From: an uncultured Succinivibrionaceae bacterium
Lineage (GTDB): Bacteria > Pseudomonadota > Gammaproteobacteria > Enterobacterales > Succinivibrionaceae
Assembly: GCA_900539665.1 (NCBI GenBank)
Contig: UQCV01000004.1
Location: 1,818 to 65,817, forward strand
Reading direction: 5' to 3'
DNA length: 64,000 nt
Shown here: positions 12,174 through 48,216 of the stretch, one piece after another
Numbering within the stretch: the stretch's first letter is position 1
How the letters are laid out: every line of letters starts with the position of its first letter
The notes under the pieces: generated by a model
The model's input: only the letters and a program-made list of their open reading frames with translations
Told to the model about the DNA's origin: nothing
Databases searched by the model: none
Made by a program: the position numbers and the translations under genes

Positions 12174-12536
12174 AACGTATTCCTTAAATGATTAAACTCT
12201 AATAGACAATAAAAACAAAGTGAACTAGATCTTATGCATCTCGACAATTCCAACCTAAATTAGGAGGAAGGCTCTCACCTAATCAAACCTAAAATCAGTC
12301 CCTTCAATTTTAAGCAGGATTTAAAAAAAATTTCAAACAAAAAATACTTGCTTGTTGATAAATTTATCAAGATATAGCCTACCAATTTTCTTTAATAACC
12401 AAAACTCTATTAAATAGATTTAAACTCAAAACACCTTGCCTTAGCTTTAAAAATAACTGCTTAAATTTTACTCATCTTTACTTTGTAAAACTCGTGATCC
12501 ATATCATGTAGGATTCAATGCGTATTGCATGTTTGT

Positions 12537-12549
12537 TTGCATTTTGCAA
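12537..12549. promoter_or_regulatory. TTGCA-ttt-TGCAA palindrome (LuxO/NtrC-class enhancer-like site)
   Basis: Exact match to the TTGCA-N3-TGCAA pattern. Adjacent TTGCA repeats are at 12525 and 12563-12570 (TTTGCAAA). The site is about 250 bp upstream of the sigma54 promoter at 12794. Confidence 0.35.
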
Positions 12550-12793
12550 ATATTATTCTTAATTTGCAAATTAAACAAACTTTCCGAAATTAGTTTTCCC
12601 TTTAAAATTTTTAACACTTTTTATTTTATTTAAAAAACTCACTCCCCAAAACTCAATCAAAACCAAACTTTTTAGATTATCATCTTGTTTAATACCGTTT
12701 TTGCAGTATTTAATTCTTTGTTTTGCACGTTTTGGATTATTTATCCCGTTTTAACTTTTAGGTAAATAATTTTTAATAAAAATAATTCAAAAT

Positions 12794-12808
12794 TGGCACG
12801 GCTTTTGC
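12794..12808 (+). promoter_or_regulatory. Sigma54 (-24/-12) promoter TGGCACggcttTTGCT
   Basis: GG and GC are separated by exactly 10 nt and flanked by the consensus TGGCAC and TTGC. The predicted TSS is near 12820. Confidence 0.6.
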
Positions 12809-12819
12809 TACCATAATTG

Positions 12820-12900
12820 CGTAATCAGTTTATCCCGTGCTCTTTCATAGTAATATGAAAGATTTTGGACTTCAAAGTTTCTTTGAAGTCCTTCTTTTTT
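12820..12900 (+). ncRNA. Candidate sigma54-dependent small RNA (~80 nt, two hairpins)
   Basis: The sigma54 promoter is followed by the hairpin CTTTCATA-GTAA-TATGAAAG and then an intrinsic terminator. No protein-coding gene lies downstream on this strand before the suhB promoter. Confidence 0.4.
12868..12900 (+). terminator. Rho-independent terminator in the intergenic region
   Basis: GGACTTCAAAG-TTT-CTTTGAAGTCC (11-bp stem) followed by TTCTTTTTT. Confidence 0.75.
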
Positions 12901-13029
12901 CTGAATCTCATTTTTAATCCTTTTTATTTTTCCCTTTCTTTACTATTACTTCCTACCGTTATTCGTAAAGCTTAACCAAAAGTTTTGCGCATAAATTACA
13001 AAAATTTGAAGCTGCGCAAATTTTTGTTG

Positions 13030-13038
13030 TGATATAAT
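13030..13038 (+). promoter_or_regulatory. suhB promoter (extended -10, TGaTATAAT)
   Basis: Perfect TGnTATAAT about 140 nt upstream of the suhB ATG. Confidence 0.5.
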
Positions 13039-13136
13039 TGCGCCATATTCTGCTACGTTAGCAGAGTGGTGCCTTATCCTATAGCTCTCAACTTTACGTT
13101 GAAGTACGGATTTTTGTGTACACCAAGGCACCTGAA

Positions 13137-13149
13137 TGTTCTTTAACCC
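13137..13149 (+). promoter_or_regulatory. boxA-like element TGTTCTTTAACCC in the suhB 5' UTR
   Basis: Close to the boxA consensus TGCTCTTTAACA. The E. coli suhB leader is known to carry a boxA used for Nus-factor-dependent autoregulation. Confidence 0.4.
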
Positions 13150-13170
13150 AAACAGAAAATCAGGATTACT

Positions 13171-14173: not shown

Positions 14174-15952
14174 CTACCAGTTATAACTTGAACTAGCCTC
14201 TTCTACTATACCCTTTAAAACATCGGCAATCACTTTTGGAATAATCTTAGGACCTCTGTGACTTGCATAATCAGCCACCGCAACCGCCATCCCAGGCTTA
14301 GTCCTTCTCTTTAAAGCGCGTTCAATGATTTTAGAGGGACCAATCCCTTCGGCATTACCATACCCAGATTCTGCCCGATAAACATTTTCAAAACCATTTT
14401 CGTAAAGATAATGCTCAATATCGACCGCCGGAAGCATGGTAACCTTATCAGGATTATCGCCAGCAGGTCCTGAAGTAGTGTATTTTTGCCCAGCCAAGTC
14501 ACCGTCTGCAAGTAAACGCCAACAAAGTCCTAGCTGCTGTGCTAACTTAATCAATGCCCCAGAACCACATTGAGCATATTCAACTAAACGGATCCCTGTG
14601 GCTAATAAATTAAGCCCCATAATATTAGCGAATTCATTTAACAGCCAAATTTCTGTTTCCCCTTCCACAAAAATCCAGCCCCTTGCATAAAGTGACATCG
14701 GGCGATTTATCCGAATATGAAAGGCAATCTTACGTAATTCATCACTAGAAAACTTCTTTTCATCAATGCAGTAACAACGAGTTTCAAACGGCATGGAATA
14801 CATGCGTCTGATATCACTTAAATTTACGGTCGAAAGAATATCACCTGAGTTTGTGGTGATAATTTGCTGCATTGGCAACATCGACACGACATTCCAAAAC
14901 CCAAACAATTCCACTGGATGTAGACGGCTATCGATATCTTCAAAAATTACAATCGGATGAGCGTGAATCTGTAAGCGTCGCCCTTGGCTTGCACTTAAAA
15001 GTGCTCCGGCAATCAACGCTAAAATAAAACCAGCTTTTTTCTTATCTGCTAGGCTCACTAAGTTTTGTAACGAAGCTAATGAACCATTAGGAATAGGACG
15101 AGACACTATGTCATGGAGCGATCTATTTTGCGGTTTTAGATATTTTACCTGTCCCCCTGAGGTAACTTGGAAGTAATGTTCTACTAATTGACGCATCGAA
15201 TCGATGGCACGGTCTATAAATTCCGGCGCTAAGTCCGCCCCTTCGCCTTTCATGACATTACGAAATAATCTTTTTAAAACGCCAGCCAACTTTTCAAAAT
15301 TATTGCGCCCATTTTTGCCCCCAAAACGACGCTTATCTTCTTCTAAGTCTAGACCAAGAGGAGGATTCATACGTTTTTCAGTTCGTACAATATCAGGTTC
15401 TGTAAAACCAGAGGTACGGCTATCACGCAACCTAAAAAGCGGGTTTAAAAGTAGCAGCATGCGCACCTGTAAGCTAGCATCCCCATCCATTAGACTTCCG
15501 GTTCTACTTCTAAACCCATGTATCGTTTGCACGGTACCGTCTTCTAAAAGATACCCTCGCACACAGTAAAAAATGCGGGTATACATATCTGAACATTGTT
15601 GCCAATATGGCTGTAGACGCCTGGAGTTTGAATTACTTAAAGCCGAACCAAAGGTTCTTTCCCTAAAGGTAAAAACCATAACTATGCTTTTCACCACATG
15701 GTCAGGATCCCCTTCTTGGTATCTATAAACCGGACCTTCACGATCTTCAAGACTACCAGGAATTACGGTACGAAAATCTGCCGTTTTAAACTGGTACGGA
15801 TGATCTCCACCCCCAAAAACGCTTAACAATGCTCGTAGGAGAGAACTTTTACCCCATGCATTTTCCCCGATAAGAACCGTACGATCCGTAAAATTAACGG
15901 CAAGTTTGGCTAGACCTCTGAATCCTGAAATCTCAGCTCTTTCTAAGATCAT
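14174..15952 (-). CDS. OLD-family ATP-dependent endonuclease (class 1, YbjD-like; ABC ATPase plus TOPRIM)
   Basis: Walker A GENAWGKSSLL, Walker B-like IVIFEDIDSRLHP, and C-terminal TOPRIM residues (FVEGETE, LADGDLAG). The start is ATG 15952 with a GGAGG RBS; the track start at 15979 is a TTG. Confidence 0.75.
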   Translation of the reverse strand: MILERAEISGFRGLAKLAVNFTDRTVLIGENAWGKSSLLRALLSVFGGGDHPYQFKTADFRTVIPGSLEDREGPVYRYQEGDPDHVVKSIVMVFTFRERTFGSALSNSNSRRLQPYWQQCSDMYTRIFYCVRGYLLEDGTVQTIHGFRSRTGSLMDGDASLQVRMLLLLNPLFRLRDSRTSGFTEPDIVRTEKRMNPPLGLDLEEDKRRFGGKNGRNNFEKLAGVLKRLFRNVMKGEGADLAPEFIDRAIDSMRQLVEHYFQVTSGGQVKYLKPQNRSLHDIVSRPIPNGSLASLQNLVSLADKKKAGFILALIAGALLSASQGRRLQIHAHPIVIFEDIDSRLHPVELFGFWNVVSMLPMQQIITTNSGDILSTVNLSDIRRMYSMPFETRCYCIDEKKFSSDELRKIAFHIRINRPMSLYARGWIFVEGETEIWLLNEFANIMGLNLLATGIRLVEYAQCGSGALIKLAQQLGLCWRLLADGDLAGQKYTTSGPAGDNPDKVTMLPAVDIEHYLYENGFENVYRAESGYGNAEGIGPSKIIERALKRRTKPGMAVAVADYASHRGPKIIPKVIADVLKGIVEEASSSYNW

Positions 15953-16340
15953 ACGCGCCTCCGTTGACAAAAGGGTCAATGAATCGTTCCTAAAGAAAAT
16001 CGTAGACCAATTTATGTTTTACATACTTAGCTAAAGTTCTAACCACTAAGGTCACTAGAACCACTAAACAACGAAAAGCACGAAGCCTAGTACTAGTAAT
16101 ATATACCTTAAATTGAGGCCTTAAATTAAGCTTATGTTTTGGTCGAGCCGTAAGCCCTTGTGGTCACCGTTTGCTAAACGTCTTAACGTCTTCTCCCAAA
16201 ACTCCAAAGGCTTTATATCAAAGCCTCTAAGTGTTTTAACTAGGAACCTAGTTAAAATATTATATCGGGGCCTTATGGTGAAAACAGTTAAGTTGAGGCA
16301 AAATTTTGTGACATTCCTTGATTAAAAAGTGACCTATCAC

Positions 16341-16447
16341 GTGAACTACTCACCACCTAAAGAGGTGGGAGCTTCGTAATTACTCATTAGAGTAATTCTA
16401 AAGAAGTTTGATAGCTATGCTATCCTTATTCTTACAGGTGTGTCCAC
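16341..16447 (+). repeat. Repeat family copy A, segment 1 (putative IS end; begins TGAACTAC…)
   Basis: About 95% identical to the reverse complement of 48005-48122. It contains three hairpins: CCACCTAAAGAGGTGG, AATTACTC-ATTA-GAGTAATT and GATAGC-TAT-GCTATC. Confidence 0.85.
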
Positions 16448-18167
16448 TTCACCTCTACTGTATAGGACTTCTAAGTCCACTACATTACTTTTTCTTAGTA
16501 TATTTAATGCTCCATTTACATCTGCATTAAGTATATAACCTTTTGAAGTTTGATAGAGCTTCAGCATCATATCATATATTTAAGCTCAAAAGAAGTAAGA
16601 GCAAAAAAACCAATTCATCTCCCACCTAAAGAGGAAGGAGTATTCTTGGAGATTTTAGATAAAAAATGTATCTAAATGAAATTTTTCGGACCAAGGACAT
16701 AATAATTTCGCAACAGCACATCCTTTTGAAGACTGACTATTAATTCAAGGCTTCCTTAATGCACCGAAACAGCAGTCAAATGTATGTCTGTCAATTCCTA
16801 GTGGATTTTTGGTTTTATCAGTTATAGCTTATTAATTTACAATTTAACCTTTAAATTTCAGCCGTAGATGTGATATGCTATGGTCAGCTTCGAGAAATGG
16901 AGGTACAAAATTTATGATTAAGCGCACAATGTATATGAACCGCATCCGTCCCTTCATCGGCTCGGATTTGATAAAGGTTATGACCGGTATTCGCCGTTGC
17001 GGGAAGTCGGTTATGTTGGAGCTGATTAAGCAGGAACTCACTGAGTCCGGTGTCAGCCCAGCTCAGTTTATCTCCATCAATTTTGAGGATATGAGCTATT
17101 CCCATCTGCAAACCGCTAAGGCTCTGAATGACGAGATCGTTAAGAAAGCTGCCGACATTGAAGGTAAAGCATATCTGTTCTTCGACGAGATTCAGGAGGT
17201 CAAGGACTGGGAAAAGTGCATAAACTCGCTGCGCGTCTCTTTGGATTGCGACATTTATATCACCGGATCAAATGCAAAGCTGCTGTCAGGTGAGCTTGCA
17301 ACTTATCTGGGAGGACGCTATGTTGAGTTTGTGATTTATCCTTTCTCCTTTGCAGAATTTTTGGAGCTGTACCACCTGACTGCTCCGGATGCGCCTATCC
17401 GGAAGTGTTTTCAGCAATATCTCCTGTCAGGCGGTATGCCATATCTCGCCAATATCCGATATGCAGATGCACCTTCTAAGCAGTACCTCCGCGATCTTTT
17501 CAACTCTGTTCAGCTAAAGGACATCGTGAAACGAAACAAAATCAGAGATGTGGATTTACTTGAGCGCATTATCACCTATGTAGTGGCGAATGTGGGCAAC
17601 ACCTTCTCCGCAACATCTCTTGCTAAGTTTCTCAAAAGTGAGCAACGTACCGTAGCACCGGAGACAATTCTGAACTACATCAAGTACTGCTGCGACGCTT
17701 ATCTGTTCTATCAGGTGAAGCGTGAGGACTTGCAGGGAAAACTGATTCTTGCATCTAACGAGAAATACTACATTGCAGATCACGGAATCCGAGAAGCTGT
17801 CTATGGCGGCAACACACGAGACCTCAACCAGATCCTTGAAAATATCGTCTATCTGGAACTGCTGCGCAGAGGCTATACGGTCACTGTTGGACGGACAGGA
17901 GATAAGGAGATTGACTTCGTATGTGACAATCGCGGTGAGAAGCTGTATGTTCAGGTTGCTTATCTGCTTGCTTCAGAAGAAACGATTGCCCGTGAGTTCG
18001 GAGCGTATGACCGCATCCGGGATAACTTCCCCAAATATGTCGTTTCTCTTGATGAATTTGATATGAGTCGAAACGGTATCAAACACCGAAACATCCGCGA
18101 TTTCCTCTTGATGGAGGAATGGAACTAAAGAGTTTGCCCGTCACAGTTTTGAAGGCGGTGACGAGCA
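16448..18167 (+). mobile_element. About 1.7-kb insertion splitting repeat copy A; carries a foreign AAA ATPase gene
   Basis: The sequence between segment 1 and segment 2 of copy A is absent from the contiguous copy B. GC is about 48% against about 40% for the host, and codon usage differs (CTG-rich). A fragment of a related repeat end lies at 16612-16640. Confidence 0.6.
16914..18128 (+). CDS. AAA+ ATPase of the AAA_14/DUF4143 type
   Basis: P-loop GIRRCGKSVML and a Walker B FFDEIQ. Start is ATG 16914 with a GGAGG RBS 10 nt upstream. The C-terminal region is DUF4143-like. Confidence 0.7.
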   Translation: MIKRTMYMNRIRPFIGSDLIKVMTGIRRCGKSVMLELIKQELTESGVSPAQFISINFEDMSYSHLQTAKALNDEIVKKAADIEGKAYLFFDEIQEVKDWEKCINSLRVSLDCDIYITGSNAKLLSGELATYLGGRYVEFVIYPFSFAEFLELYHLTAPDAPIRKCFQQYLLSGGMPYLANIRYADAPSKQYLRDLFNSVQLKDIVKRNKIRDVDLLERIITYVVANVGNTFSATSLAKFLKSEQRTVAPETILNYIKYCCDAYLFYQVKREDLQGKLILASNEKYYIADHGIREAVYGGNTRDLNQILENIVYLELLRRGYTVTVGRTGDKEIDFVCDNRGEKLYVQVAYLLASEETIAREFGAYDRIRDNFPKYVVSLDEFDMSRNGIKHRNIRDFLLMEEWN

Positions 18168-18310
18168 TCATTGTTATCCCTTGGTCTTACAATAATTGCA
18201 ACAAATGAATTACATAACTTTAACCACGTTTTAGGTTGCAATTATGAAAAATATCTACACTTATGAATACAAAATTAACCTTGTGAAATCCTTCCTTAAA
18301 TCGCAGTATG
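18168..18310 (+). repeat. Repeat copy A, segment 2; contains a 26-codon ORF (18244-18324) that looks like the N-terminus of an IS3-type OrfA
   Basis: About 90% identical to the reverse complement of 47870-48004. The ORF is MKNIYTYEYKINLVKSFLKSQYATAQ. Downstream, a frameshifted LNELEKEIIEQKR leucine-zipper-like stretch follows. Confidence 0.6.
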
Positions 18311-18581
18311 CTACAGCTCAATGAGCTTGAAAAAGAAATAATTGAGCAAAAAAGGACTTCTCGAAAAAGATCTGTTCAAAACAAATGAGCTAAATCAGAT
18401 CTTTTAAGTGGACTGGTACAGACGCACCAAACTTTAGGTTCAGCCAAATGTCACAAAATAAATTTCACCATATGCCTAGTGACTCATTTTTTTCATAGCA
18501 TCATGTATAATAGAACCATGTTTTCTTCAAATGTTTGGACCAAGAGCCACGACACATAGCCAACTAGGTTAGTTGACACCG

Positions 18582-18644
18582 ATGTTAATGTACATGTAAC
18601 AATGTTAATCTACATGTAGTTGCCACAAATAGTTGCCACAAACG
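18582..18644. repeat. Two tandem direct-repeat pairs (AATGTTAATsTACATGTA x2; TAGTTGCCACAAA x2)
   Basis: Seen directly in the sequence. A third pair, GTTACCATTARAAGAAGT x2, is at 18717-18755. All lie upstream of the ycbZ-like gene. Confidence 0.7.
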
Positions 18645-18783
18645 GATGCTAAAACCTACTTTAGTCTTTAGGCATTAAATTTTAAATACGCCGCTCCTAT
18701 TTCCCCAAACTAGCATTACCATTAAAAGAAGTGCGTTACCATTAGAAGAAGTATAGATATTAAAATCGGATCAAGGATTATAA

Positions 18784-20856
18784 GTGAAAGAATTAAAATA
18801 TACCGAACTTGAGCCTCAAATCGCAGCTTTCGCCACAAACGAAACCACAGGGACAACCAAAGTTACCCTTGCGACCTTCGAAAAAAGAGCACAAAGTGCC
18901 ATCACTGAACTTTTAAATACCGATAGTAGCAACCCTCTAATGCTCCTTTCTACCATTGATGGAGCCAATACTGAACAATGCATTCGCGATCTTTTAACTG
19001 GGATCACCATGCCTCATCGGGAGCTTTACGACCTTTGCTACGCCGAAAACCTAGATAATGCCTTAGCTCCTGTATGGCTCCACATTAAAAGTGGTACGTC
19101 CGCAGAATTTAGCGAACTCATGTCTGAGCTTTTTCAAAAAGTTAAGCTCAAGGTTGACGCCGAAAAACTCTTATTAAGAATCCTTAAAAAGCAAGGTGAC
19201 AACCCAAAGCTCGAAAATTACCTTTCAGACCTTAGTATTTATGTGGCCCAAGGACGAGAATTTACTCACCCCGTGCCTATGAATTTATTGGTACGTCACG
19301 ATGCAGATCGCACTCCAGTCATCTTTGGAACCGATATCACTTGGAAACGACTTTTTGGTGGGGTTAATTACTTAACTGAAAATGGTTCAACCTACTCTAA
19401 CCACCACTTACTTGAACCGGGTTTACTCCGTCAGGCCGACGGGGGCATTTTGGTGCTACGAGCTGAAGAATTAGTCCGTAATCCAATGCTTTGGTTTAAG
19501 CTTAAAAACGTCCTAAGCCGAGGCTTACTCGATTGGGACAGTCCATCAAGCGAATTAGTACCAGGAAGTGTTGTTCCATTCTTTAACCCTGAAGCAACTC
19601 CTATTAACGTTAAGGTTATCATCACTGCTAGTTATTATGATATCGCTGAACTTTATCATTATGATCCTACTTTTAACGATGCCATTTACCTAAGAACTGA
19701 CCTTAATTCTTACTTTGACTTAAAAGAACATACCCAAAACTTCTACCAATACCTTGATTACGTTGCTTCACGCAACAATCTTTTACCGTTTACTGAAGAC
19801 GCTAAACGTTTTTTAATTAGAGAAGCTTGTCGCTTAGCCGAAAGCCAGCTTGAGTTTGTCATCAATGAACACTGCCTCCTTAATGTAATGCGCGAAGCTT
19901 CTGGCTATGCGCGCCGTGCGGACCAAGCTGAAGTAACCCTCAAAGAAGTTCAAACCGCTAACCAAGCCAACTTCTTTAGATTAAGTAGCATGGTTGAAGA
20001 ATCTACTTCTTTTTATAAAAATAAGCAGATGCTGTTACAAACTGATGGTCAAGTAACAGGGCAAATCAACGGTCTTTCAGTCGTACAAACTCTCGGTGAA
20101 GATTTTGAATATGGGGAACCAATTCGCATCACCGCTACTATCCATAACGGTGGCGACGGGGATATTGCCGATATCGAACACAAGGCCGAACTTGCTGGAC
20201 AGATTCACACCAAAGCCATGATGATTATCAACGGCTTTTTAACTAATACTTTTGGGTATAATGAATCAATTCCAGTTAGTGCCAACTTAGTGTTTGAACA
20301 GTCATATAGCGAAATCGATGGTGACAGCGCATCTTTGACTGGACTTTGCGCGATTTTGTCCGCCATGGCTGGCAAACCAATCCACCAAACATTTGCTGTT
20401 ACCGGAGCCGTTGACCAATTCGGTAACGTACAACCTGTTGGCGGGGTTAATAAAAAGATCGAAGGCTACTATCGCATCTGTAAGATTCAAGGATTAAACG
20501 GACGTCAAGGCGTTATTATTCCTGAAAGTAACATTCAAGCTTTAACGCTTGACCAAGAAATCATCGATGCCGTAAAAGCCGGACAATTCCATGTTTGGGC
20601 CGTTAAAAACGTCAACGACGCGATCGAACTTCTAACCGGTATCCCTGGTGGCTTTCCAGATAAGACCCAAGAGGAAGCACCATCTCAATCTTCAGAAGAA
20701 GCTAAAGCGACGAAAAAAGAAGCTCAAGCCAACGACAAGGAAGATAGTGACAAGGAAACTTTATACGATATCATTGCCCTAAGCCTTGATAGTAATAACA
20801 GAATGCGCGAAGGATGCGGTTTATTAAGTCGCATTCTTGGATTCTTTGGACGTTAA
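18784..20856 (+). CDS. ycbZ: Lon-like protease homolog (YcbZ family)
   Basis: The C-terminal S16 domain (SYSEIDGDSASL…VTGAVDQFGNVQPVGGVNKKIEG) is collinear with E. coli YcbZ. The GTG start has an AAGGA RBS. There is a K/E/D-rich C-terminal tail. It lies next to fabA as in E. coli. Confidence 0.75.
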   Translation: MKELKYTELEPQIAAFATNETTGTTKVTLATFEKRAQSAITELLNTDSSNPLMLLSTIDGANTEQCIRDLLTGITMPHRELYDLCYAENLDNALAPVWLHIKSGTSAEFSELMSELFQKVKLKVDAEKLLLRILKKQGDNPKLENYLSDLSIYVAQGREFTHPVPMNLLVRHDADRTPVIFGTDITWKRLFGGVNYLTENGSTYSNHHLLEPGLLRQADGGILVLRAEELVRNPMLWFKLKNVLSRGLLDWDSPSSELVPGSVVPFFNPEATPINVKVIITASYYDIAELYHYDPTFNDAIYLRTDLNSYFDLKEHTQNFYQYLDYVASRNNLLPFTEDAKRFLIREACRLAESQLEFVINEHCLLNVMREASGYARRADQAEVTLKEVQTANQANFFRLSSMVEESTSFYKNKQMLLQTDGQVTGQINGLSVVQTLGEDFEYGEPIRITATIHNGGDGDIADIEHKAELAGQIHTKAMMIINGFLTNTFGYNESIPVSANLVFEQSYSEIDGDSASLTGLCAILSAMAGKPIHQTFAVTGAVDQFGNVQPVGGVNKKIEGYYRICKIQGLNGRQGVIIPESNIQALTLDQEIIDAVKAGQFHVWAVKNVNDAIELLTGIPGGFPDKTQEEAPSQSSEEAKATKKEAQANDKEDSDKETLYDIIALSLDSNNRMREGCGLLSRILGFFGR

Positions 20857-22561: not shown

Positions 22562-22609
22562 GAATAGTATCATGACTTCATTAACTCTTACTGCAAAGCG
22601 TTGGTGGCG
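22562..22609 (+). CDS. trpL: trp leader peptide MTSLTLTAKRWWRTR with tandem Trp codons
   Basis: AGGA RBS. The WWRT core is shared with E. coli TrpL (…KGWWRTS). Confidence 0.8.
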
Positions 22610-22666
22610 CACTCGATAATACGCGGGTGGGCTAAGTCATGTTTTAAAATTAGCTATTCAAAGAAA

Positions 22667-22693
22667 AGCCCGCACCTGCGGGCTTTTTTTTTA
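22667..22693 (+). terminator. trp attenuator terminator (3:4 hairpin)
   Basis: AGCCCGC-ACCT-GCGGGCT followed by T9. An upstream CGCGGGTGGGC can form the alternative antiterminator pairing. Confidence 0.8.
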
Positions 22694-39988: not shown

Positions 39989-40100
39989 AAAGTGACATCC
40001 TCCCCCACCTATAGAGGTGGGGGCTTCCCACCGATAAGATAGGTTCAGTTCTCGCTCAAGCACTCTAATGAGTACAGTATCAACGAGCTAACCCCGTGTG
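39989..40100. repeat. Degenerate copy C of the repeat family
   Basis: Shares GTGACAT, the CCCACCTATAGAGGTGGG hairpin, ATAAGATAG and ACTCTAATGAGTA with copies A and B. Confidence 0.6.
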
Positions 40101-40203
40101 TCCCACGGTTCTATGTTTTGAATTTATGCAGTTACTAACCGCATACCTTCATTTTTTATATTTATAGCATAATGTTTAGAAAGCTGTCAAGTAGATTTCG
40201 GCA

Positions 40204-40250
40204 ATTCATCTCACCACCTTAGAGGTGGGGGACTTCTTGCCGAGTTCTGT
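40204..40250. repeat. Degenerate copy D (end fragment) of the repeat family
   Basis: AATTCATCTCACCACCTTAGAGGTGGGGGACTTC resembles the copy A end and the fragment at 16612-16640. Confidence 0.55.
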
Positions 40251-40539
40251 TAAATTACTTCCTAAGTTTCTTCTATTTTTCCTTCTTCCTTATAAATAGT
40301 CTTTTATTACTTAGAATGCAGATTTGAAAGCAGTTTTTAAGACAAACATGGAAAAATGAAACCGACCTGGGATATGTTTTTTAGAGATATTAGTTTGGGT
40401 GGCATATAGCTTGCACTATTACTTAACAATTACATAAGTAGCGGACTTAAGCTTAGATAAAACTCGTTTAATAAAACTCATTTGATTAAAATTCGTTTAA
40501 ATATTTATGCTACCTTTCGCAGCATCAAAGGAGAACAAT

Positions 40540-45404: not shown

Positions 45405-45839
45405 ATGCGCAGCCTAATAGCAGTAGTTGCCACCACAGCCTTACTTAGCACTGGATGTGTAGTTGTTGATGATGACTATGATAGTGGCTACACCACCTAC
45501 TACGAACCAGCACCTAATACCGTCATAACTTATTCATCAAGAACCGTGGTGGTTCCGCCTCCACCGCCTCCACCACCTCCTCGTTATTACCATCCATATC
45601 GTCCGGGTTTTAGACCAGGACCACACTATAAACCTGATCATCGACCAGACTTTAGACCAGGACCAAGACCTGACCATCGACCTGACCATCGACCTGACCA
45701 TCGACCTGACCATCGACCTGACTTCAGACCGGGACCAAGACCTGACCATCGACCTGACTTCAGACCGGGACCAAGACCTGATAGCCGCCCAGATGGAAAC
45801 ATCAGACGCTTTGAACGTGGCCCACACTACGCCCGCTAA
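45405..45839 (+). CDS. Lipoprotein with poly-Pro and DHRPD/FRPGPRP repeats
   Basis: Signal peptide with a lipobox (LLSTGC). Contains P9 and tandem 12-nt (GACCATCGACCT, four copies) and 36-nt nucleotide repeats. Confidence 0.65.
   Translation: MRSLIAVVATTALLSTGCVVVDDDYDSGYTTYYEPAPNTVITYSSRTVVVPPPPPPPPPRYYHPYRPGFRPGPHYKPDHRPDFRPGPRPDHRPDHRPDHRPDHRPDFRPGPRPDHRPDFRPGPRPDSRPDGNIRRFERGPHYAR
45636..45779 (+). repeat. In-frame tandem repeat array (12-nt unit GACCATCGACCT within a 36-nt higher-order unit) inside the lipoprotein gene
   Basis: Seen directly in the sequence. Confidence 0.85.
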
Positions 45840-47820: not shown

Positions 47821-47869
47821 GCATATATCGCGTGACTAAAGCGTTTAGCAAAGCCGGCAATGGAAAGTT

Positions 47870-48122
47870 CGTTGTCTGCTTGCTGCTATTTAAGGAAGGA
47901 TTTCACAAAGTTAATTTTGAATTCACCAGTGTAGATATTTTTCATAATTGCAACCTAAAACGTGGTTAAAGTCATGTAATTCATTTGTTGCAACTATTGT
48001 AAGACCTAGGGTGACATGGACACACCTGTGAGAATAAGGATAGCATAGCTATCAAACTTCTTTAGAATTACTCTAATGAGTAATTACGAAGCTCCCACCT
48101 CTTTAGGTGGTGAGTAGTTCAC
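47870..48122 (-). repeat. Repeat family copy B (contiguous; putative IS left end plus the first 19 codons of an IS3-like orfA)
   Basis: Its reverse complement matches 16341-16447 and 18168-18310 contiguously, with no insertion. It contains the ORF MKNIYTGEFKINFVKSFLK* at 47886-47945 on the minus strand. Confidence 0.8.
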
Positions 48123-48216
48123 TGAGCTAGGTAACTATAAAAATATAGGAACTTCAATATATAAGAACTTTAAGTTATAAAACCTTTTAGCTATGAATAT
48201 GACGCCCCACACAAAC

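Follow-up and report, generated by a model that had tools for sequence, protein, structure and literature searches.

A foreign ATPase gene between remnants of two unrelated insertion sequences in a Succinivibrionaceae chromosome

PATE-like elements, miniature members of the IS200/IS605 family with tnpB-only parents of the IS1341 type, have been described that keep omega-RNAs (PMC10055086). PDC-S01, a solitary gene combining AAA_14 and DUF4143 domains (COG1373), is a candidate defence gene only, one representative having given no protection against T4, T5 and T7 (bioRxiv 10.1101/2024.09.26.614923), and DUF4143 has been placed in the PD-(D/E)XK nuclease superfamily (PMC3424549). Members of the IS3 family are recognized by an orfA followed by an orfB with an rve domain, and composite transposons consist of a cargo gene bracketed by IS sequences. 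The locus analyzed here, locus A, invites comparison with all of these. It lies in a window of 64,000 nucleotides, the whole stretch of DNA that was analyzed, from an uncultured Succinivibrionaceae bacterium (GenBank assembly GCA_900539665.1, contig UQCV01000004.1), and occupies a gap of 2.8 kb between divergent host genes for an OLD-family nuclease and a Lon-like protease. The locus is ordinary mobile-element debris in which a foreign ATPase gene lies between the remnants of two unrelated insertion sequences, and its modules are further examples of already known kinds of element and gene. The gap between the two host genes is very probably a mosaic in which mobile DNA and horizontally acquired DNA are combined, and not a repeat broken up by an insertion. 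In left-to-right order the modules of locus A are P, U, T and X; parts of P and X adjoin again at a second site of the window, copy B, which lies between gdhA and fliR. The features are:

14174-15979, minus strand: OLD-family nuclease gene (DUF2813/YbjD-like, ABC ATPase and TOPRIM), a host gene outside the inserted block
15980-16340, no strand: spacer, 36% GC, presumably contiguous with 16659-16812 before P inserted
16341-16658, minus strand: P, a complete miniature element of the IS200/IS605 family (PATE-like, 318 bp), comprising left end, internal deletion, tnpB tail and right end
16341-16371, minus strand: right-end terminus of P (GTGAAC on the plus strand, 16341-16346) and subterminal hairpin (16349-16371)
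16415-16570, minus strand: 51-aa C-terminal TnpB ORF (...NADVNGALNILRK...TPVRIRIA, then stop), spanning 16453/16454
16619-16640, minus strand: left-end subterminal hairpin of P, with the same 13-nt core on the same strand as the right-end hairpin
16659-16812, no strand: U, 154 bp separating P from the cassette and opening with the presumed target motif of P (5 nt, ATAAA; TTTAT on the tnpB strand)
16813-18177, plus strand: T, the foreign ATPase cassette, with upstream region, RBS GGAGG (16899-16903), CDS (16914-18128, 404 aa) and terminator-like hairpin (18136-18166)
18178-18306, plus strand: X, the initial 129 bp of an insertion sequence of the IS3 family, with left terminus CCCTTG/GTCTTACAAT... 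and the first 21 orfA codons
18307-18783, no strand: spacer upstream of the Lon-like gene
18784-20856, plus strand: Lon-like gene of the host (LonB-type AAA and Lon_C, Pfam), right border of the variable intergenic spot
47843-48011, minus strand: copy B, part 2, the initial 169 bp of X
48010-48122, plus strand: copy B, part 1, 113 nt of P up to its right end, with the last 12 tnpB codons, the hairpins and the terminus at 48122

A sequence-only reading of this DNA had proposed that a single repeat of about 250 bp, intact at 47870-48122, was split at locus A by a recent 1.7-kb insertion bearing the foreign ATPase gene. The similarity behind this proposal was confirmed when the window was compared with itself by BLAST, in agreement with a separate repeat search: 16328-16453 matched 48136-48010 (94.5% identity, E=5e-51) and 18178-18306 matched 48011-47883 (93.8% identity, E=4e-52), both in inverted orientation. 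The identity of the two pieces, previously put at about 90-95%, is about 94% for each with its half of copy B (47883-48136), where the halves are contiguous with an overlap of only 2 nt, while at locus A a segment of 1,724 bp (16454-18177) lies between the pieces. Both this contiguity and the clearly foreign codon usage of the gene between the pieces are what a split repeat would be expected to show. However, the halves come from different families, the left from an IS200/IS605-type and the right from an IS3-family element, and the split-repeat interpretation is unsupported because the presumed repeat is not one element; its halves look contiguous in copy B because two multi-copy elements happen to lie near each other at both loci. 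Moreover, there is no junction at 16453/16454, where the left border of the insertion had been placed: P contains the left piece and runs on uninterrupted to 16658, the tnpB-tail frame reads across the point, and in every longer copy the left piece natively continues into what are here the first 205 bp of the presumed insert. The foreign cassette proper spans only 16813-18177. Of the insertion of foreign DNA into a pre-existing repeat, only the foreign nature of the ATPase gene stands, and a single repeat split in this way is highly improbable.

Copy B (47843-48122), in turn, is not the intact or empty state but a derived, truncated one, because the miniature element continues past 16453/16454 to 16658 in its longer copies. 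At copy B the exact terminus of X, a terminus of IS3 type that is found with at least 12 other neighbors, is joined with a CC overlap to an arbitrary point within the tnpB tail. Both elements are truncated there, 113 nt of P (97% identical to 16341-16453 and matched to the TnpB tail by tblastn) being fused to 169 nt of X, which extends about 40 bp further into orfA than at locus A. Copy B is therefore a fusion of two truncated fragments, one of P and one of X, and no empty site; its structure was the same in all 10 strains sampled and at L085, L086 and L098. Most likely, such a fusion would have originated from the insertion of X into P and a subsequent deletion.

The anatomy of P corresponds in most respects to that of PATE-like elements. 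Like these, P has a 3' coding remnant of tnpB, near-terminal imperfect palindromes on one strand with the right hairpin about 8-10 nt from the terminus, conserved termini with TTTAT at the left end and no target duplication, and a structured right end of about 230 nt that overlaps the end of tnpB; it is likewise multi-copy and has a full-length parent with the same ends. P differs from them in lying in a gammaproteobacterial (Succinivibrionaceae) chromosome, its closest relatives being found in Fusobacterium and Firmicutes, and in a parent TnpB clade whose tail, as read from fragments such as P0076, is without the usual CxxC zinc-finger cysteines. Common to the two subterminal hairpins (16349-16371 and 16619-16640) is the 13-nt core CCACCTAAAGAGG, a motif that occurs 7 times in the window when up to 2 mismatches are allowed versus 1.3 expected occurrences; exact-pattern scans for the hairpin gave 0 matches in genome_contigs and viral_contigs. 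The multi-hairpin fold of the right end scored z=-3.4, with 7 compensatory pairs among 53 in the hairpins of relatives, and the terminus with its hairpin (16341-16371) would form the 3' part of a presumed omega-RNA scaffold, which in such elements is specified by the structured right end. Locus A, copy B, L011 and the yqiA locus (L067), the flank of which is also carried by L006, a probable chimera (see below), have an identical right-end terminus, ...GAGTAGTTCAC. The relatives L051-L053 share this terminus, while L054 ends in ...GAGAGGTTCAC. A right-end terminus ...GTTCAC was found in 8 different contexts. The left end, CTAAAATCTCC..., was preceded by TTTAT in four, TTTAA in one and TTTTT in one of 6 contexts, and both termini of P are conserved across independent contexts, with no target-site duplication.

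The coding remnant of P also identifies its family. The 51-aa ORF has 179 short homologues, some of them named transposase or carrying PF07282, and a profile built from these fragments matched the extreme C-termini of 410-430-aa proteins with OrfB_IS605 and Cas12f1-like_TNB domains; tblastn with the latter proteins retrieved the P tail at E=2e-14 to 2e-19. Likewise, P DNA searched with blastn matched annotated TnpB genes of Firmicutes plasmids at their 3' ends. This tnpB remnant, as found in non-autonomous IS200/IS605 elements, also means that the segment between the two pieces, described earlier as free of transposase, is so only in part, the minus strand from 16570 to 16415 encoding the C-terminal 51 aa of TnpB. 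A full-length element with the same ends, from which P is derived, was recovered as well: a parent-like element of about 1.46 kb in Fusobacterium (L051) has matching ends (left end 80%, right end 94% identical), and interrupted full-length tnpB genes are present in L054, which shares the ends of P, and in L055. The copies in L067, a free-standing one of 343 bp located between yqiA and pabA, and in L011, also free-standing, as well as the parent-like L051, are uninterrupted past the point equivalent to 16453. In summary, P is an internal-deletion derivative that has kept both end hairpins, the tnpB promoter region, the last ~50 tnpB codons and the structured right end. It would have been inserted by the single-strand peel-and-paste route of its family, adjoining a TTTAT motif and without target duplication, a step for which TnpA would have to be supplied in trans. 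A hypothetical omega-RNA transcribed from the minus strand of P and ending beyond 16341 would carry the guide GTGATAGGTCAC.... With respect to other structured elements, no Rfam family was found for P or X at the gathering or E<=10 thresholds, and an Rfam E-value scan of 16200-18800 for a group I intron or IStron returned no intron family. TnpB-derived miniature elements that are closest to Fusobacterium and Firmicutes copies thus exist in multiple copies in this proteobacterium.

X, the right-hand piece of the earlier reading, sits 11 bp past the terminator hairpin of the cassette and is truncated on its far side. It was identified solely through a scan of metagenome DNA, since its peptide matched no Pfam family and only 13 short ORFs in an index of 5.8 billion proteins; in viral_contigs X had 0 matches. 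The left terminus of X occurs in at least 12 different left-hand contexts (22 metagenomic contigs and other loci), and such a sharp terminus with many different flanks is shared with the IS3 family. Similarly, the long copies L088 and L089 continue into an OrfA of 209-215 aa, the ~210-aa length and coiled-coil C-terminus of which are again those of IS3 elements, and L088 extends further into an OrfB that matched the IS3 transposase model NF033516 (E=7.5e-47, 160.3 bits versus a cutoff of 160) and rve (E=1.4e-17). The arrangement of orfA followed by orfB with rve, which is typical of the family, was found for the long copy L088 only, and the match of this IS3 element at locus A is limited to 18178-18306. 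X also departs from described IS3 members, given that only 129 bp (locus A) and 169 bp (copy B) of it survive in the window and that the N-terminus of its OrfA matches no Pfam HTH model. Furthermore, IS3-family termini commonly start with TG, whereas that of X starts with CCCTAR. A TGT terminus, considered on the basis of three contexts, was rejected as twelve contexts place the terminus at CCCTAR/GTCTTAC. The first 43-49 nt of X also occur alone in three further contexts, and this stretch could therefore be something other than a simple IS terminus. An intact right end of X was not recovered, every copy examined being incomplete (truncated or cut by a contig end). Near the IS3 orfB remnant of L011, no right inverted repeat of X was found; the remnant is only 58% identical to the OrfB of L088 and thus belongs to a different IS3 member. 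Downstream of X, a peptide NELEKEIIEQK... at 18320-18380 had been considered as an OrfA remnant and found no support in tblastn and blastn searches with the real IS3 copy, and the same searches with the L088 element detected no further IS3 remnant in 18307-18783.

In the cassette T, the complete AAA_14/DUF4143 gene with a GGAGG RBS that had been described before was confirmed as an intact ORF. It starts with ATG at 16914, matches AAA_14 (E=1e-34) and DUF4143 (E=2e-18), contains intact Walker A (GIRRCGKS) and Walker B (LFFDE) motifs and is matched in full length by the PADLOC PDC-S01 model PDLC04787 (E=6e-167 over residues 1-401). T shares the domain architecture of PDC-S01 and its occurrence as a solitary gene, and differs in sitting in a proteobacterial chromosome with a codon usage of Clostridia type. 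The CTG-rich leucine codons noted earlier are indeed unlike those of the host, with CTG accounting for 45% of leucine codons versus 2.2% +/- 2.3% in 30 host ORFs (z=18), and GC3 is 53.8% compared with 38.3% +/- 4.6% in host ORFs (z=3.4). In contrast, the difference in GC content, given before as about 48% against about 40%, was overstated: the gene has 46.4% and the cassette 45.3% versus a host ORF mean of 43.8% +/- 2.9% (z=0.9 for the gene), and the visible contrast stems mostly from flanking non-coding DNA of 30-36% GC. The protein is 86-91% identical to thousands of proteins of Lachnospiraceae and other Clostridia, and the cassette DNA shows 82% identity to the Clostridia loci L021-24 over 16813-18128 and 76% to L013-20, also from Clostridia, over 16911-18180. 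Judged by its codon usage and relatives, T is a foreign, discrete cassette acquired from gut Clostridia. The genomic contexts of close relatives are of a defence or accessory kind, comprising Wadjet JetC/JetD with SocA (L021) and RhuM with a resolvase (L099), and the encoded protein would most likely act as an ATP-dependent accessory protein that senses or cleaves nucleic acids. A PDB sequence search with the ATPase returned no relatives, and megablast of the locus found nothing in plasmids and only a single unverified 'phage' contig, in which an ATPase homologue lies among accessory genes. To our knowledge, no anti-phage activity is known for the PDC-S01 family, the gene of which is very common and remains a candidate as regards defence. 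The cassette offers a clean example of the transfer of such a candidate-defence gene across phyla, from gut Clostridia into a human-gut Succinivibrionaceae chromosome.

The host genes on either side define the spot at which these modules accumulated. The OLD-family gene, correctly described before as lying directly beside the insert, is located 361 bp to the left; it matches Pfam DUF2813 (E=4e-83) and OLD-like_TOPRIM and gave partial GajA-like matches in PADLOC. A Gabija system was not found, as no GajB/UvrD-like helicase adjoins the OLD gene, its neighbors being an inositol monophosphatase gene and P. In 8 related genomes the OLD gene is the conserved divergent neighbor of the Lon-like gene. 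In related Succinivibrionaceae the interval between the two genes measures only 225-360 bp, and neither T, P nor X was found in this interval in related Succinivibrionaceae and Ruminobacter, which indicates insertion of the block as a whole at a variable spot. The spot that received the PDC-S01 gene varies in related species too. Within the gap, a 63-aa ORF (16134-16325) had no Pfam match, and U showed no similarity in any locus retrieved for comparison. The boundaries of P and the duplication-free insertion mode of IS200/IS605 elements suggest that the spacer 15980-16340 was once contiguous with 16659-16812. The inserted block is fixed in all sampled strains, and loci A and B have an identical structure in every one of them, so that nothing marks an insertion as recent. 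Since no sampled strain showed locus A or B in an empty, polymorphic or intermediate form, the order of events is inferred from the anatomy of the locus.

The arrangement of locus A, a cargo gene bracketed by IS-derived sequences, resembles that of a composite transposon. However, the flanks come from different IS families, P being complete and facing away from the cargo and X being a one-sided stub, and the locus has neither a matching pair of ends for one transposase nor a reliable second copy. A second copy had seemed to be provided by L006, in which an A-type P-U-T-X, 99.85% identical to locus A, is joined to a yqiA flank. Its use as proof of a mobile composite was withdrawn, since in long yqiA contigs P stands free, belongs to another variant and is not accompanied by the ATPase; copies of P are nearly the same over their first ~218 bp, and L006 is probably an assembly chimera formed through this identical P tail. 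The status of L006 bears on the possibility that an A-like composite P-U-T-X once lay between gdhA and fliR and was pared down to copy B by an IS3-mediated adjacent deletion, which reached from exactly the terminus of X into P and eliminated U, the ATPase and the remaining part of P. In this case the composite, or a larger element containing it, would itself be mobile. The order of P and X and their relative orientation do agree between A and B, one deletion endpoint is precisely an IS terminus, as expected for IS-promoted adjacent deletions, and L006 would place A-type P-U-T-X beside a different host gene. Apart from the probable chimerism of L006, however, the ATPase was found at B in no strain, the A and B copies differ by 3-7%, and the X fragment is longer in B than in A, so that the present-day locus A cannot be the parent. 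Such an origin of copy B appears unlikely.

Homologous recombination could also have produced the appearance of an insertion into a repeat, if incoming ATPase DNA flanked by P and X had recombined with a resident B-like junction at locus A and thereby restored the full P. Both elements are multi-copy and 93-99% identical between copies, and could thus serve as homology arms, and at the yqiA locus L071 and L074 have different sequences past P, perhaps as a result of recombination at copies of P. On the other hand, these arms would measure merely 110-170 bp or so, the suspect L006 is the only P-U-T-X donor outside this locus, close relatives of the ATPase in Clostridia are flanked by neither P nor X, and nothing points to the earlier B-like junction at locus A that this route demands. 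We consider this route highly improbable. A broader role could be imagined for X, alone or with P as portable homology, in capturing and trimming defence cassettes and shuttling them between gut phyla. At L011, a PDC-S01 paralogue (26% identical to T) together with a truncated hsdM abuts X, and P lies about 150 bp past the X remnant. The recurrent proximity of X and P to candidate-defence ATPases, seen at locus A and at L011, might then be no accident. If such capture took place, cassettes would have been shuttled from Clostridia and Fusobacterium to Succinivibrionaceae with P-U-T-X as the mobile unit, as L006, if real, would suggest; we regard this as very unlikely. The favored reading, a mosaic assembled from unrelated modules, has instead a mainly corrective value: where fragments of two unrelated insertion sequences adjoin, they can pass for an intact repeat, and a short metagenomic contig that crosses such repeats, like L006, can fake a second copy.

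One observation speaks against the mosaic reading: P and X were found near each other at three loci (A, B and L011), a greater co-occurrence than two independent elements might be expected to show.

Comparison of the window with itself bore out the geometry described in the sequence-only reading, in which two pieces at locus A, between the OLD-family and Lon-like genes, match adjoining halves of copy B in the gdhA-fliR spacer (47843-48122). Both matches are inverted, with 16328-16453 aligning to 48136-48010 (94.5% identity, E=5e-51) and 18178-18306 to 48011-47883 (93.8% identity, E=4e-52). At copy B the pieces adjoin with a 2-nt overlap, whereas at locus A they are separated by 1,724 bp (16454-18177). 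The further proposal that a repeat was split here by an insertion is not supported, since copy B consists of truncated IS fragments, while at locus A the supposed left junction lies within an intact module and is crossed by its ORF. The parts of the locus, a PATE-like IS200/IS605 derivative, an IS3 stub and a gene of the PADLOC candidate single-gene defence system PDC-S01, are all of known kinds:

16341-16658, P, miniature non-autonomous element
16659-16812, U, segment between P and T
16813-18177, T, ATPase cassette
18178-18306, X, end of an IS3-family element

P is complete and uninterrupted at locus A, and its 51-aa ORF (minus strand, 16570-16415, ending ...NADVNGALNILRK...TPVRIRIA*) has 179 short homologues, some of them named transposase or bearing a TNB domain of TnpB. 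When built into a profile, these fragments align with the far C-terminal ends of proteins of 410-430 aa that have OrfB_IS605 and Cas12f1-like_TNB domains. At the DNA level, P also matches TnpB genes annotated on Firmicutes plasmids, at their 3' ends. Locus A, copy B, the yqiA locus and the Hadza gut contig L011 all have the same outer end (...GAGTAGTTCAC). Relatives, Fusobacterium among them, keep this terminus too, and their hairpins show compensatory changes. In five of the six contexts compared, the inner end (CTAAAATCTCC...) is preceded by TTTAT or TTTAA; its hairpin shares a 13-nt core with the outer one. Long contigs of the same species carry a free-standing copy of 343 bp in the yqiA-pabA interval, and Fusobacterium carries an interrupted full-length tnpB as well as a parent-like element of ~1.46 kb with ends matching P. 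The tnpB tail, the conserved ends, the free copy and the parent-like element thus identify P as a complete miniature PATE-like element of the IS200/IS605 family, which may have arrived by TnpA-mediated single-strand transposition beside TTTAT. Such elements, often with the omega-RNA region kept, have been described (PMC10055086); no Rfam family matches P. A more diverged PATE-like IS200/IS605-type remnant was seen at 39992-40260, in the gene-poor 39.1-41.5 kb region, where GTGACATCCTCCCCCACCTATAGAGGTGGGGGCTTCC resembles the right end and hairpin of P and CATCTCACCACCTTAGAGGTGGGGGACTTC, in a second hairpin at ~40217-40250, its left-end hairpin.

A protein search with the small ORF of X returned only 13 short unannotated ORFs, and a metagenome DNA scan for X yielded 22 contigs. 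Across these contigs and the other loci compared, at least 12 different sequences adjoin the X terminus (CCCTAR/GTCTTACAAT..., boundary at the slash) on its left. Two long copies (L088 and L089) have at least 1.35 kb in common and encode an OrfA of 209-215 aa opening with the same peptide. In L088 an OrfB comes next, with an rve domain and a score that reaches the NCBIfam threshold for IS3 transposases. These comparisons establish what P and X are, where they are bounded and that both are multi-copy; the right end of X was sought and not recovered. In the window X spans only 129 bp at locus A, where it probably inserted 11 bp past the terminator of T and was truncated afterwards, and 169 bp at copy B, where host DNA near the gdhA terminator follows. 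In three further contexts (the L078, L079 and L077/L097 contig groups) the opening 43-49 nt of X (CCCTAR GTCTTACAATAGTTGCAACAAATGAATTACATGAC) stand alone, with unrelated host genes coming next; they may be solo IS ends, or else a short repeat that serves the IS3-type element as its target.

In copy B the outer 113 nt of a P element meet X precisely at the terminus of X, overlapping by CC. The join falls within the tnpB-tail reading frame, and the spacer is constant (463 bp in 10/10 strains). Copy B is thus a nested, truncated pair of IS fragments and does not represent locus A in an unoccupied state. Such a pair would have arisen by insertion of X into a P copy and subsequent deletion. Derivation of the P/X join from an A-like ancestor through IS-promoted adjacent deletion is improbable.

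The interval 16454-18177 contains a single intact ORF, which encodes AAA_14 and DUF4143 domains and whose probable start is the ATG at 16914, 10 nt past a GGAGG (404 aa). Its codon usage is strongly atypical for the host, CTG making up 45% of leucine codons compared to 2.2% +/- 2.3% across 30 ORFs of the host, with GC3 at 53.8% compared to 38.3% +/- 4.6%. Thousands of Clostridia proteins share 86-91% identity with its product, and similarity of T to Clostridia DNA begins at 16813 (82% identity) or 16911 (76%) and stops at 18128 or at 18180, just beyond a terminator-like hairpin and at the terminus of X. Codon usage and Clostridia homology both support the earlier claim that the gene is foreign, and T is a segment of foreign origin and discrete extent. 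The GC contrast advanced alongside codon usage was overstated, as the gene's GC content (46.4%) lies inside the range of host coding DNA (43.8% +/- 2.9%); the GC step at locus A mainly reflects coding DNA against AT-rich flanks. The Clostridia relatives are solitary genes in diverse surroundings, one adjoining Wadjet and SocA genes, and a homologue with 74.6% DNA identity lies among accessory genes on an unverified phage-collection contig. The ATPase matches PDC-S01 over its full length, as does an unrelated paralogue in L011 (26% identity). PDC-S01 is the commonest candidate-defence locus in rumen genomes (PMC13356809), and the sole representative assayed gave no protection (bioRxiv 10.1101/2024.09.26.614923). 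DUF4143 has been classed within the PD-(D/E)XK superfamily (PMC3424549), and no solved structure is related to the ATPase by sequence. The product might serve as an accessory or defence protein that is ATP-dependent and directed at nucleic acids.

Going by the cluster names of its FabA and Lon-like proteins, the window comes from an uncultured Succinivibrionaceae bacterium of human gut metagenomes. The OLD-family and Lon-like genes are conserved divergent neighbours in eight related Succinivibrionaceae/Ruminobacter genomes. In four of the eight the gap is only ~225-360 bp, compared to 2,804 bp in the window, and neither the ATPase nor any repeat piece is present; two relatives carry other inserts, indicating a variable spot:

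L046:1650-6000, Succinivibrionaceae WG-1, PIN7-domain gene and unknown ORFs
L047:2811-6000, RUG065, two ORFs of 557 and 522 aa, no Pfam match for either

Given these short or differently filled spacers, the entire locus-A block is an insertion, exceeding the 1.7 kb originally proposed. Every contig with the identical Lon-like protein has the arrangement with the ATPase.

In one contig, L006, an A-type P-U-T-X block (99.85% identity) is attached to the yqiA flank. This was considered as a sign of a mobile composite and rejected, as the long yqiA contigs have another P variant and no ATPase. With copies of P nearly the same over their first ~218 bp, L006 is most likely an assembly chimera. Past P downstream of yqiA, contigs L067, L071 and L074, whose P variants differ in length, run into three regions (pabA, uvrA and the atp operon), either because P copies recombined or because of jumps in the assembly. 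A second mosaic, in which P and X have the opposite relative orientation to that in the window, occupies L011:2434-5309, from the same family; from left to right it comprises:

IS3 orfB remnant, minus strand
distant PDC-S01 paralogue, 435 aa
first ~35 codons of an hsdM-like gene, cut by the X terminus
X, about 240 bp
P copy, 434 bp, inserted after TTTAA

Elsewhere in the window, a small ORF upstream of gdhA (45405-45839) contains a 12-nt tandem repeat (GACCTGACCATC-like) of at least eight units at 45619-45798; since the ORF varies from 124 to 156 aa among strains, the number of repeat units is polymorphic. Between the UPF0149 and inositol monophosphatase genes, ~1 kb of intergenic DNA (12174-13170) is unusually AT-rich (26-29% GC). 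The sole Rfam family above its gathering threshold in the window is the tryptophan operon leader (RF00513, 47.7 bits), at 22596-22691 upstream of trpE.
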